A stretch of DNA of 64,000 nt, from assembly GCA_964354805.1 (NCBI GenBank), contig CAYHBD010000016.1, forward strand, positions 101,472 through 165,471. Reading direction: 5' to 3'. Positions 7,179-33,521 of this stretch are shown here, in pieces (the first letter of the stretch is position 1; each line of letters begins with the position of its first letter). The notes under the pieces were generated by a model that saw nothing but the letters and a program-made list of their open reading frames with translations, was not told the origin of the DNA and searched no databases. Origin of the DNA: an uncultured archaeon. GTDB lineage: Archaea > Iainarchaeota > Iainarchaeia > Iainarchaeales > GCA-2688035. The translations under genes were made by a program, and so were the position numbers.

Positions 7179-8936
7179 TTAGCATCCTGTTCCTGCTTTC
7201 CATTGCCTCATTTTCTGCATTAGTGTCAGCATGGTTATTTCTCCTTTTTTCCACTGCCCAATAAAGCCCAGCAACTCTGGCTCCCTAATGCATTGTTGAG
7301 TGCAGTCTGTTGGGCATGTTTCAATTGTTTCGCCTGCATCGCAAGTGCCGTTGCCGCAGCAGACATTGTCTTCGTCTGTTAATCCATCAAAGTCGTTGTC
7401 TTTGCTGTCGCATACTTCTTCAAGAAACTTGATTGCGCTTAATTTTTCGTTGATTGCATATTCAATGCTTGTATCAAAAACAATTGTGCCTCTTTGGTAT
7501 TTTCTGTACCATGTGCTGCCTTCTTTGTGGGGCTCTTCTAAAGGCAATCCTAACTTGTAACCATAAGTGAAGTAGTTAACCATTGGCTTGTCGTACTCGC
7601 TTGGATTGATGTAAATGTATGTGTTTTGGTTTCCAACTAAATGGGCAAAAAGCCAAATCTGGTAAGCTAGGGGGTTGTTGGCCTCTGCTTCGGAAAAGGT
7701 GCTTGCAACATAAAGTTGTTTTTTGTTGTTGTCGCCTAATCTTTTTGATTGGCGGTAATAAGCTTCAACATTGGCGTCTTGATTCCAGAAGCCGTTTTCA
7801 AACATTATCATGTCAAAACTATTTAAATTTTCTGTACTGCTGGTTAACCTATCCAAAAATGCGGTTAGGGTTATTTCCAGGTTGCCTGAGTCGGTTACTG
7901 TCCTGAATCCGTTTAATATAAGGCGGGTATTAGGTTTTGCTGCCTTTATTTCCTTAGCAATCAATATTACATTATCAATTAATTTGTTCCTCTGGTCGTC
8001 TATGCTTCCAGTGGAAATATACTTTCCAACATAATTAATCCAGTAGTCTGAGGGAATCCAATTATCCAAGAAAACATCATCATTCCCATACCGTGCCTGT
8101 CTTATTAATACGTATTCTACTGCGTATTCCCTTACAACAGAGTTGCTAAAGTTAAAGAACCATCTTCTTTCAGTTCCACCCCCACCTCTCCAATAAGTAC
8201 ATGCGGGCGTTTCATCGCACCCATATCCCCAAGGGTAAACAATAGTTTTCCCATTCCGGTAATCCTCGTCAGGGGAGTCTTTGAGAGGCTCGGTGTTGGT
8301 CTTGTTATCTTTCCAAATGGTATTCCCCCCAGAATCTGTTTGAACTCCATAACTGCATCCCCCTTCGCCAAACTCTTCTCTTTCTTGACACATTTTGTTT
8401 ATATCTGCTCTTTGAATAATGTCTTTTCTAACTTTCCCGTCTCCATCGGCATCATATTTTGTGAATAGAGCATCTATGTCTGATTGATCAAGTGCAACCA
8501 CATTAATTCGTTGTCGGTTTTCAGTGGCGGAAGGGTCGAAAAGGCTTTCTTTATCAAAACTACCGTGTGGGTGAATGTTGGTTGTTGAAATATAATGAAA
8601 AAAATCTAAGCCATTGTATCCGTTTCCAATAGTAAATTCTGTTCCCTGGATTTGCTCGGCATTTCCTTCGTAATACCTTATTTCGTAAAATTTTAGGATT
8701 TCATTGAAGTTTGTGTTCCCTAACTTGCTTCCGCAGTCGATCGCGCAGTTTTCGCTGTTTTCCCCTAATCCTGGTTCGCAGTTTTGGTTGCCGCATGCGT
8801 CCAGGGTTTCTTGCAGTTGGAGTGTGGAATGCTGTTCATTTTGTGGCGTTGTTGTTTCAGGTTGTTGGCTATGCGAATTTGAGTTTGCAAGCAACGCTAT
8901 TGCAAGAATAATGATAATTATTGATTTATGTTTCAA
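7179..8936 (-). CDS. Secreted putative glycoside hydrolase (GHL15-like) with conserved QWKxG tail (gene A)
   Basis: Signal peptide; FFNFSNSVVREY...DVFLDN, MFEN and KLGLPL...WYRKYQRGTI motifs; CGNG modules; shared tail. Confidence 0.65.
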   Translation of the reverse strand: MKHKSIIIIILAIALLANSNSHSQQPETTTPQNEQHSTLQLQETLDACGNQNCEPGLGENSENCAIDCGSKLGNTNFNEILKFYEIRYYEGNAEQIQGTEFTIGNGYNGLDFFHYISTTNIHPHGSFDKESLFDPSATENRQRINVVALDQSDIDALFTKYDADGDGKVRKDIIQRADINKMCQEREEFGEGGCSYGVQTDSGGNTIWKDNKTNTEPLKDSPDEDYRNGKTIVYPWGYGCDETPACTYWRGGGGTERRWFFNFSNSVVREYAVEYVLIRQARYGNDDVFLDNWIPSDYWINYVGKYISTGSIDDQRNKLIDNVILIAKEIKAAKPNTRLILNGFRTVTDSGNLEITLTAFLDRLTSSTENLNSFDMIMFENGFWNQDANVEAYYRQSKRLGDNNKKQLYVASTFSEAEANNPLAYQIWLFAHLVGNQNTYIYINPSEYDKPMVNYFTYGYKLGLPLEEPHKEGSTWYRKYQRGTIVFDTSIEYAINEKLSAIKFLEEVCDSKDNDFDGLTDEDNVCCGNGTCDAGETIETCPTDCTQQCIREPELLGFIGQWKKGEITMLTLMQKMRQWKAGTGC

Positions 8937-8980
8937 TTTAAATCAATCAAATAAGTGCTTTCTTTAATAAAAATTTAATT
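8937..8980 (-). promoter_or_regulatory. Conserved promoter/leader of the tail-gene family (A)
   Basis: AAATTTTTATTAAAGAAAGCACTTATTTGATTGATTTAAA before TTG; shared by genes A-E. Confidence 0.75.
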
Positions 8981-9046
8981 GAGGGGGCTTGTGGCTGGCA
9001 AAAGCACAGCTGGCAGTGCAGTTGTGCCCTGCAATTAAGTATTTAT

Positions 9047-31260: not shown

Positions 31261-31261
31261 C

Positions 31262-31360
31262 GCCGACAGCAGTGCTTGAAATGGGGATTTGAATATTTTT
31301 GGGCGATAACAAAATTTTTATTAAAGAAAGTGCTTATTCTAATTGATTGGAAATGAAGCA
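31262..31360 (+). repeat. Copy of the pheT 3' end plus family promoter, between genes D and E
   Basis: Encodes PTAVLEMGI* versus pheT PTAVLEMEV*, then GGGCGATAACAAAATTTTTATTAAAGAAAGTGCTTATTCTAATTGA. Confidence 0.9.
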
Positions 31361-33521
31361 TTTGCTTGTGTTTCTGTTCATTGCAATGCTGTTTATTACT
31401 GCTGCAGGGCAAGCTTGCAGCCCAGCTCTTGGCGCGGAAAACCTTATAGTTAACGGAGACCTGGAATTGGGCAGTGGCGGTGTCCCTGAATGCTGGACAA
31501 AGGTTGGGGAAAAGCTAGGGCATATTTTAGATTGGGTTGCTGATCCAGCAGGGCAAAGGGGGATGGTTCTTAAATCAGAATATACTGGCGAAGGCGATCC
31601 AAGTTACTTTAATTGGCAGCAGACGGTTTATAACATAAAACCCAATGCCTGGTATGAGTTTTCTGTAGATTTTGCCATGTATGAGATCGAACCAAACATT
31701 GATGAAACCGGGCACATAAACCAAAACTCTTGGTGGGCGGGTGTAAGCTTAATAATAGAATCAACTCATGAGATAGCGGATTACTGGGGGAGAACTCGTT
31801 TTTGGGCAATGGGGCCAAAGCTTGTTGACTGGGATGATGGGGCATGGATATACCGAACATACGAAGTGGGAAATCAGGGTTGGAGAACATATAAAAAGCG
31901 CTTTAAGACTCCAAGCAATGCAGATGTGGCTGGTGTAATGACTTATAACTTGCCAAAAGGAAAATTGTATGTTGACAATGTTATTTTGAAGGAAGTAGAT
32001 TCTGGTGATGAAACCGCTTTTAAAAAATCAGGGGCTCTAAATTTTATAAAATATAAAGGGCAAGATTTTTTTCCCATAGTTTTTTTGGGCATCCCTCTTG
32101 AAAATAGCGGTAACAATCTGTCTTTAGCTGAAATAAAAGAGAAGGGGTTTAATACTGCTGGCGAAACAAAGTATAAAATAAATAATGCGGGCATTGGGGC
32201 AGAAAAGCTCAAACAGATTTATAGTGAAAACGACCTTGCTTTAATGGTTGGGCTGTCAAGCATTGTTTCTAAGGAAAACGATCCATTAAATAGGCCTTAT
32301 TGGGTTAATGACCCCCTTCATTCTGTTAATTATATTGGCGCAGAAGCAACGAGAAAAACTATTGGGGATTTTAATAATTTTGAAAACCTTTTGTTTTTCA
32401 GAGGCGAAGACGAAATCACATGCCATCCCACAAGAAGAACAGGCAATTTCCTCCCTGATTTAAAATCCTTCCAAACAATAAAATCTTATACAAACAGTAA
32501 TGCTCCGGGAAAATTACTTCTATACAATTTTTGCGGTGTCCCTTACCCTTATACCGGGCTGGCCCAAGATTCTGTTGATTACTATTTCCCAATAACAGAT
32601 GTTATAACCTACACCCAAAACATGCCAGTAGCATATGATGGAGAATATAATGAAGTACCGAAGGCCAGGGCATTGGGAATTGGAGGAAAGCTTACAAGCT
32701 GGGTAATTGCCTCTTCCCCCAGCAAATATGTTCTTGCATATGTTTTAGGGGAAAGGGAATGGGCGCTTTGGGACGGCATTAATGACTCTAACAACCCTTA
32801 TATTGGAAAGCTTCCATTCAACTTGCAAAGATTTCAGGCATGGGACCAAATAATAAATGGGGCTGTTGGAGTTTTATTTCACGGATATACAAACAGCCCA
32901 ATAAATTTAGAAAACACGTATGATAACTATCATTATCAACAGCTAACAACAATCTCAAAAGAATTATCTGAATTATACCCTGTTTTGCTGACAAAAGAAT
33001 TCTTTGGTGAATGGGAAGTTTCTGATCCAAGAATAGAAATCATGATGAAAAAACACAACGGAAAAATTTACCTCTTAACAGCAAGCACACACTATGAGGA
33101 CCTGCGAAACGTAACAATAACACTTAACAGCAAATACAAAATAACCAAAATAACCGCATTAAACGACATAGCAAATGGAAACATAGACAACCCAACTGAC
33201 AGAAGCATTGCCCAAAGCACAGCAAACAGCTTTGTTGACGATTTTGTGGGGGACAATGCAGGTTCACCAGCGGCTGTAGCAACCCCAGGATACGCTGTCC
33301 ATGTCTACGAAATTGAATTCAGCGAATGTGGCAATGGCCAATGCGATTCAGGCGAAACATTTGAAACCTGCCCGGCAGACTGCACCCAAGAATGCATTGA
33401 CACACCAAAATTAATGAACCAGTACATCCCCCAGTGGAAAAAAGGAGAAAGGACAATGCTTTCATTAATGCAGAAAATGAGGCAATGGAAAGCTGGAACA
33501 GGATGCCCAACTCCAGCATAG
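31353..33521 (+). CDS. Paralog of gene D with a B-type QWKxG tail (gene E)
   Basis: Colinear similarity to D (DEITC, YNFCG, LPFNLQRFQ.WDQIINGA). Confidence 0.7.
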   Translation: MKHLLVFLFIAMLFITAAGQACSPALGAENLIVNGDLELGSGGVPECWTKVGEKLGHILDWVADPAGQRGMVLKSEYTGEGDPSYFNWQQTVYNIKPNAWYEFSVDFAMYEIEPNIDETGHINQNSWWAGVSLIIESTHEIADYWGRTRFWAMGPKLVDWDDGAWIYRTYEVGNQGWRTYKKRFKTPSNADVAGVMTYNLPKGKLYVDNVILKEVDSGDETAFKKSGALNFIKYKGQDFFPIVFLGIPLENSGNNLSLAEIKEKGFNTAGETKYKINNAGIGAEKLKQIYSENDLALMVGLSSIVSKENDPLNRPYWVNDPLHSVNYIGAEATRKTIGDFNNFENLLFFRGEDEITCHPTRRTGNFLPDLKSFQTIKSYTNSNAPGKLLLYNFCGVPYPYTGLAQDSVDYYFPITDVITYTQNMPVAYDGEYNEVPKARALGIGGKLTSWVIASSPSKYVLAYVLGEREWALWDGINDSNNPYIGKLPFNLQRFQAWDQIINGAVGVLFHGYTNSPINLENTYDNYHYQQLTTISKELSELYPVLLTKEFFGEWEVSDPRIEIMMKKHNGKIYLLTASTHYEDLRNVTITLNSKYKITKITALNDIANGNIDNPTDRSIAQSTANSFVDDFVGDNAGSPAAVATPGYAVHVYEIEFSECGNGQCDSGETFETCPADCTQECIDTPKLMNQYIPQWKKGERTMLSLMQKMRQWKAGTGCPTPA

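Follow-up and report, generated by a model that had tools for sequence, protein, structure and literature searches.

A calcium-loop-free, dockerin-like tag on secreted proteins of an uncultured member of the Iainarchaeota, and its candidate beta-sandwich socket

The window analysed here is a stretch of 64,000 nucleotides on contig C16 of the 1.38-Mb genome (88.5% complete) of a very small, host-dependent and uncultured archaeon of the Iainarchaeota, DPANN. Five of its genes, here called A to E, encode secreted-type proteins that end in a common short tag, and I consider it likely that this tag is a 37-residue plug that binds an anchored beta-sandwich domain, the socket, encoded elsewhere in the same genome. 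According to this proposal the tagged proteins would leave the cell via Sec with cleavage of their signal peptide, and the tag, predicted to fold as a two-helix hairpin in which a disulfide presumably links the first and the last cysteine, would bind a socket of about 110 residues on a membrane anchor, non-covalently and independently of calcium. At least 16 interchangeable cargoes under one promoter type would compete for single sockets, and secreted glycan-active enzymes and lectin-like proteins would thereby be kept at the cell surface. The system would resemble a dockerin-cohesin pair whose anchor bears a single cohesin.

The tag and its family

The open reading frames (ORFs) of A to E are all open (Table 1), and each starts with a hydrophobic stretch (Kyte-Doolittle 1.7-2.3 in a 19-residue window) and ends in a tail that measures 37-38 residues from Cys to Cys. 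This confirms the claim of a first-pass annotation, made from the sequence alone, that five genes with signal peptides share a C-terminal tag. Its count of four unrelated body types is also correct, as D and E are paralogues with 52% identity and the remaining bodies are unrelated. The internal repeat of two 17-residue units that it described is evident from the 17-residue period, with the Trp positions 17 apart (the second Trp is replaced by Arg in C and D), and the last 60 residues contain no hydrophobic segment (maximum 0.66), in line with its statement that the tag has no transmembrane helix. The Cys-rich spacer that it noted before the tag varies in type, and many relatives have none.

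A hidden Markov model (HMM) built from the five window tails and run against the own genome matches 16 ORFs with E-values of 1e-17 to 1e-28, whereas the next match has an E-value of 0.05. All 16 are of the secreted type and carry the tag at the extreme C-terminus, none at a random position, and because of these terminal matches and the gap that follows them the match set is far beyond chance. The 16 proteins fall into about 11 unrelated body groups, D, E and a third gene being paralogues. Throughout the phylum the tag is distributed patchily, in 14-16 of 215 genomes with 1-16 copies each, and a profile search of 1.84 billion cluster representatives gave 321 matches. Among the best 150 of these 321 matches, with 151 tags in total, 141 tags are C-terminal and 10 directly follow the signal peptide, in front of bodies of 400-800 residues, while one protein carries two tag copies; the second Trp follows 17 positions after the first in 141 of 150 tags.

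The predominantly C-terminal location (141/151 homologous tags, and 16/16 in this genome) would also be expected of a sorting or processing signal that is read by a dedicated transpeptidase or secretion factor. As relatives carry the tag right after the signal peptide, however, the tag behaves as a movable module and not as a terminal processing signal, and the protein with two copies, the missing transmembrane helix and a linked gene that encodes a bare beta-sandwich without enzyme domain make such a signal highly improbable. The targets of archaeosortases and exosortases (PGF-CTERM and kin) likewise share short C-terminal ends on secreted proteins; in contrast to these, the tag has neither a transmembrane helix nor a basic tail and can be N-terminal, and the NCBIfam CTERM models do not match any of A to E.

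The AlphaFold model of the tag is a two-helix hairpin (helices 4-16 and 22-34; predicted local distance difference test, pLDDT, 91.5), and as in dockerins a tandemly duplicated segment gives two antiparallel helices. In the structural comparison that had been proposed earlier, with dockerins and EF-hands in view, the 39-residue hairpin has only generic matches among known structures (best Z 4.7). Foldseek, VIA and Atlas features showed nothing specific for the tag model and give no proof of a new fold; searches of Pfam with 16 and with 31 tags returned neither dockerin nor EF-hand nor any other match, and a PDB sequence search with the tag was equally negative. The tags have a net charge of +1 to +5, which, together with their aromatics and the absence of another anchor, could mean that the Trp/Met/Lys-rich helices lie in the plane of the membrane or bind the S-layer or glycans directly, without any protein socket. 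However, the hydrophobic moments are modest (0.16-0.45), the mean hydrophobicity is about zero, many relatives are acidic and the linkage with the socket would be left unexplained, and I give this explanation very little credence.

Upstream of 14 of the 16 tagged genes there is a common 45-bp element with a TATA-like box, which ends at the start codon. The 14 best matches of a genome-wide matrix comprise 13 tagged genes and one gene that is cut by the end of contig C40, which is probably a 17th tagged member because its start is identical to that of the tagged protein P0072. The element is found almost nowhere else in the genome and is absent from the socket genes. At the DNA level the tags show 65-93% identity (46% at four-fold sites), and their tail halves occur in mixed combinations; this pattern suggests that the family arose by duplication and by the swapping of bodies, while the ends stayed conserved and selection preserved the tag.

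A candidate socket for the tag

The socket domain was found through P0117, a natural socket-tag fusion that consists only of a signal peptide, a beta domain of 110 residues and the tag. This beta domain has two strong homologues in the genome, which are adjacent on contig C30, both have a signal peptide and a transmembrane anchor and make a plausible receptor. The two partners that the first-pass annotation had put forward, at 46060 (46054-48651, plus strand) and 57548 (57548-61375, plus strand), were rejected: neither has a socket domain and neither tracks the tag, the former being present in 22 of 23 genomes of the family and the latter in 11 of 23, including seven untagged ones. The former belongs to a large secreted family with up to 13 matches and is a core surface protein unrelated to the tag, and the latter, of 1275 residues, has an eight-cysteine cluster domain (TIGR04289, below cut-off).

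Within the family the socket occurs in 6 of 9 tagged and in 0 of 14 untagged genomes (Fisher p 8e-4, which is overstated as kin are not independent), and tag and socket co-occurrence shows splits within genera (g6 and g11). The tag is located at most 1.5 kb from the socket in 12 of 18 socket-bearing genomes. In a blind test of eight tagged proteins that were traced to their contigs, the socket was the next gene in six (E 1e-22 to 1e-34). These loci come from Pace- and Woesearchaeota among others, and two of the contigs carry bacterial genes; for the two other picks, P0115 and P0124, no socket was found in the retrieved DNA, both being tandem tag arrays in loci that are cut near the gene. Scanning metagenome contigs with a single-protein query gave ten socket loci, five with an adjacent tag, one with a fused two-loop module and four, mostly short, with neither. 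Moreover, two tag subtypes pair with two socket subtypes (Mantel rho 0.63, 0/5000).

The socket is modelled as a nine-strand beta-sandwich (pLDDT 97), a strand number and fold shared with cohesins, and its best fold match is CLIPPER/DUF11 (PDB 9ifr; Z 13.2, root-mean-square deviation (rmsd) 2.1, 107 residues aligned); bacterial and archaeal cohesins from Clostridium and Archaeoglobus match with Z 9.3-11.3 (rmsd 2.8-3.1, 103-108 aligned). Its sequence resembles DUF11 (PF01345) weakly (17.8 bits, cut-off 24.6, E 0.004), and, with regard to the isopeptide Lys-Asn/Asp triad of CLIPPER/DUF11, it has an invariant Arg4 in the first strand and no conserved Lys in strand 1. When tag and socket were modelled as a complex the score was 0.46, against 0.02 for the best control, with runs agreeing in 100% of contacts and a partner pLDDT of at least 73. 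The mark used for such predictions is reached by 58 of 80 solved and 2 of 110 mismatched pairs, at 0.60 or below by 7 of the 80 solved pairs and both mismatches, and I take the prediction as weak support, which becomes modestly supportive given the prior from gene linkage.

Several observations weigh against tag-socket docking. Tags and sockets are unlinked in this genome, and three tagged genomes have no socket, although these are fragmented and 81-87% complete. Within the main subtype the co-divergence is not significant (rho 0.28, 327/5000), and the split of tag and socket into subtypes may reflect shared ancestry. CLIPPER/DUF11 and not cohesin tops the fold matches, pilin and adhesin domains tie with the cohesins, YcnI scores as high or higher, and the cohesin profile PF00963 matches neither the socket nor anything in its own genome. 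Finally, several socket proteins have no anchor or have large bodies, so their roles vary.

The excess of 16 tags over only two sockets, the internal two-fold repeat and the need of a 37-residue hairpin to bury one hydrophobic face could alternatively point to self-association, with hairpins forming four-helix bundles, cargoes pairing as homo- or heterodimers that reach the surface via tagged partners, and the beta-sandwich gene merely being co-inherited. This would leave unexplained both the socket-tag fusions and the fact that in different phyla, and even in bacteria, it is one specific domain that follows the tag. Membrane anchors are also missing from all tagged proteins of this genome, and I regard self-association as improbable. 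If the tag does dock onto the socket, the display would be one-to-one, with one cargo per anchor and not a cellulosome, because there are 16-17 plugs, two single sockets and no multi-socket scaffold. No multi-socket scaffoldin was seen among the two single-socket genes of this genome (88.5% complete) and the one-copy socket proteins of the retrieved loci, and the multi-enzyme array suggested by the first-pass annotation is not supported, as every receptor seen has one socket domain.

A second cassette subtype is found in other families of the Iainarchaeota (L078, L079, L080, L082, L084 and L085), in which a divergent tag, often with a six-residue insert, is located beside a small anchored socket, and some of its tagged proteins themselves bear a socket-like domain. 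In L114:7989-9643 and L119:5109-9108 a loop-less tag gene and a socket gene are located in contigs with bacterial genes (in L119 rpsK, rpsD, rpoA and rplQ). This location of the two cassettes suggests that tag and socket have been transferred across domains as a two-gene cassette. Decay or assembly error may account for a frameshifted socket gene beside an intact copy (L087:1149-1439) and for a stop codon that interrupts the tag at L108:4538-5857, where the locus is an almost identical copy of that of G081.

Calcium loops and known docking systems

Weaker profile matches, from Pace- and Woesearchaeota among others, have six extra N-terminal residues that complete a 12-residue calcium loop. These looped relatives align with the window tags in hhalign (99.3%, E 6.6e-21), 14 of 22 match EF-hand_1 weakly and 2 of 22 match Dockerin_1, again weakly (E 0.04). 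The Glu at loop position 12 is present in 18 of 19 looped and 11 of 131 loop-less tags, whereas in 115 of the 131 loop-less tags loop position 7 is a Cys and the terminal Cys is present as well. The window tags are without the first six loop residues and mostly without the position-12 ligand, have neither the two 12-residue calcium loops of dockerins nor any match to the EF-hand helix-loop-helix, a loop being present only in relatives, and these relatives keep only the first one. In these alignments calcium loop and calcium ligand are lost together, and the window tag is the loop-less form of a module of the Candidate Phyla Radiation (CPR) and DPANN whose other members keep one calcium loop. 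The loop-less alignment and the hhalign continuum thus support the earlier description of a minimal, Cys-bracketed, calcium-loop-free dockerin-like tag that is carried by secreted proteins unrelated to each other.

The looped form can be aligned (48%) with a two-loop dockerin-like module once a stretch of about 14 residues, lying between helix 1 and the end of loop 2, is removed. This alignment suggests but does not prove dockerin descent; the tag probably arose from a dockerin/EF-loop module that lost first its second and later its first calcium loop, and the weakness of the profile match speaks against such a descent. PF00404 has no match in the own genome at E<=1. In the product of L111:3353-3991 (plus strand), which may represent an ancestral-type form, the place of the tag is taken by a two-loop dockerin-like module that is fused to the socket domain and ends in Gly-Cys. 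In L118:1-9062 six consecutive genes each end in a four-Cys looped tag, with beta-helix and metallophosphoesterase cargoes.

The likeness to dockerin-cohesin pairs (PF00404, PF00963) consists in a small duplicated helical module on unrelated secreted proteins, in a membrane-anchored beta-sandwich partner of the same superfold, and in the calcium loop kept by tag relatives. However, the tag has 37 residues instead of the roughly 60-70 of a dockerin, no calcium loop in this lineage and two helices closed by a Cys pair; neither tag nor socket is matched by Pfam, and the socket of 110 residues is nearer to CLIPPER/DUF11 and was not seen in a multi-socket scaffoldin. The calcium-free tag would work like the dockerin of such a pair and yet falls outside that family by Pfam and by its calcium loops. 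The pairs of Archaeoglobus fulgidus and ANME (anaerobic methanotrophic archaea) are also archaeal with single-socket proteins, and the A. fulgidus cohesin (PDB 2xdh) matches the socket with Z 9.3 (rmsd 2.9, 103 aligned). In Archaeoglobus, too, socket-plus-plug fusions lie beside anchored sockets. These pairs differ in that they are recognisable by Pfam and calcium-dependent, unlike the pair described here, whose cargoes are glycan-enzyme-like. Archaeal dockerin-cohesin pairs are thus known, among them non-cellulosomal ones of ANME (PMC9012536). The group-2 truncated dockerins of Ruminococcus flavefaciens have one calcium loop and still bind an anchoring cohesin (PMC12270676), but they have lost a whole repeat and kept a loop, whereas the window tag keeps both helices and no loops. 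CLIPPER/DUF11 domains occur mostly as stalks of tandem repeats, contain an isopeptide bond and have no known peptide partner (PMC12617251); the socket differs by being single-copy with the invariant Arg in its first strand. No description of the tag-socket pair was found in the literature on dockerins in DPANN, Woesearchaeota or Iainarchaeota/Diapherotrites, or with DUF11. This locus adds the calcium-free form of the tag, the expansion of that form and the promoter common to its genes.

A further-reaching version, which I put forward tentatively and as somewhat less likely than not being the case, holds that the pair is independent of true cohesins: a 37-residue, calcium-free and disulfide-closed hairpin would bind a DUF11/CLIPPER-like domain as a two-gene cassette spread in DPANN and some bacteria. 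In this lineage enzyme bodies would have been swapped between two constant ends, the promoter with the signal-peptide start and the tag, and the resulting 16-17 co-regulated proteins would form a surface arsenal against host or environmental glycans. For the surface retention of secreted enzymes and the engagement of hosts by DPANN, a tag of 37 and a socket of 110 residues form a small, concrete candidate pair, missed by Pfam and NCBIfam; the tag is found in 321 protein clusters. If the binding is true, the tag would be useful for designer enzyme scaffolds, being about half the size of a dockerin without need for calcium, and the pair would provide the first partner-binding role for a DUF11-like domain and show stepwise loss of calcium loops.

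Cargo bodies and genomic context

The first-pass annotation had compared the bodies to GHL15, glycoside hydrolase family 20 (GH20), polysaccharide lyase family 10 (PL10) and a carbohydrate-binding module (CBM4/9) with TIM barrel, which is supported in part. A exceeds the cut-off of GHL15, a family that is itself hypothetical. B has a match to GH20 domain 2, which also occurs in GH84, a weak CBM4/9 match and a GMDE acidic-pair motif, but no match to the GH20 catalytic domain, and its barrel part has no PDB match. C remains below the cut-off for PL10 (PF09492, 18.9 bits, cut-off 22; profile match to 1r76, E 0.37). For D and E, no significant glycoside hydrolase or CBM match was obtained with 17 homologues (a GH72 structure gave E 0.66 and, in a single member, CBM_4_9_1 gave E 0.04). 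Their family, which comprises 18 proteins and is undescribed, has 47 invariant columns in an alignment of 17 sequences, and its members also occur with pilin-type N-termini, fn3 or a true dockerin (PF00404, in one D homologue). PDB searches with the bodies of A, C and D/E and with the B barrel gave nothing significant. The bodies look glycan-active-like, their family assignments being partly confirmed, and the tag could help to recognise new families of glycan enzymes, such as those of C and D/E.

Other tagged cargoes of the genome include BNR-repeat, a second GHL15-like and beta-helix proteins. In the 72 long tagged relatives Pfam finds mostly beta-helix (33), LamG (15), NosD (11) and PKD (9), metallophosphoesterase twice, and GH2, GH42, GH123 and heparinase once each; glycan-related cargo predominates without being obligatory. 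With the named hydrolase families so rare, and with C, D and E lacking a significant enzyme-family match, docking might serve to attach the archaeon to a host or partner cell, or to decorate that cell, by a lectin-like and stalk scaffold in which many bodies may be non-catalytic, and not to retain enzymes. This rival concerns the purpose of docking only, and I regard it as rather unlikely, as A passes GHL15, B has a GH20-type architecture with the acidic pair and, among the homologues of D/E, acidic residues are conserved within a region that resembles a barrel.

Table 1. Tagged genes of the window with their tags and upstream elements, and the two socket genes
Feature	Position	Strand	Basis
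Gene A, 585 aa: signal peptide, GHL15-type barrel, Cys/Asp-rich spacer, tag	7179..8936	-	PF14885, 36.9 bits, cut-off 27
Tag of A, aa 549-585	7182..7292	-	tail HMM
Common upstream element of A, TATA-like box, abuts start codon	8936..8981	-	genome-wide matrix
Gene B, 916 aa: signal peptide, GH20/GH84-type domain 2, inserted CBM4/9-like module, barrel with GMDE motif (aa 566-569), Cys-rich spacer, tag	10945..13695	-	
Tag of B, aa 876-913, predicted two-helix hairpin	10957..11070	-	
Common upstream element of B	13696..13741	-	
Gene C, 762 aa: signal peptide, body weakly PL10 pectate lyase-like, TSP3-like Asp repeats, Cys spacer, tag	22356..24644	-	
Tag of C, aa 722-758	22371..22481	-	tail HMM
Common upstream element of C	24639..24684	-	
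Common upstream element of D	29080..29125	+	
Gene D, 711 aa: signal peptide, uncharacterised conserved body (18 homologues, one with Pfam dockerin), Cys spacer, tag	29125..31260	+	
Tag of D, aa 671-707	31135..31245	+	tail HMM
Common upstream element of E	31307..31352	+	
Gene E, 722 aa: D paralogue, tag	31353..33521	+	
Tag of E, aa 681-718	33393..33506	+	tail HMM
Socket gene 1: socket, transmembrane helix	G000 C30:70837-71388 (outside window)		
Socket gene 2: socket, Cys-rich stalk, transmembrane region	G000 C30:71411-72982 (outside window)		

The nearest named relatives of the replication factor C (RFC) large subunit are metagenome-assembled genomes of Iainarchaeum (58-68%), and in a comparison with sequencing runs freshwater sediment was the best DNA match and may be the source, with no RNA run among the matches listed. 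Elsewhere in the window, a 422-residue ORF (17969-19237, plus strand) has no significant NCBIfam match, and the gene for a CDC48/AAA ATPase (57-3128, plus strand) is split by an intein with a LAGLIDADG domain.

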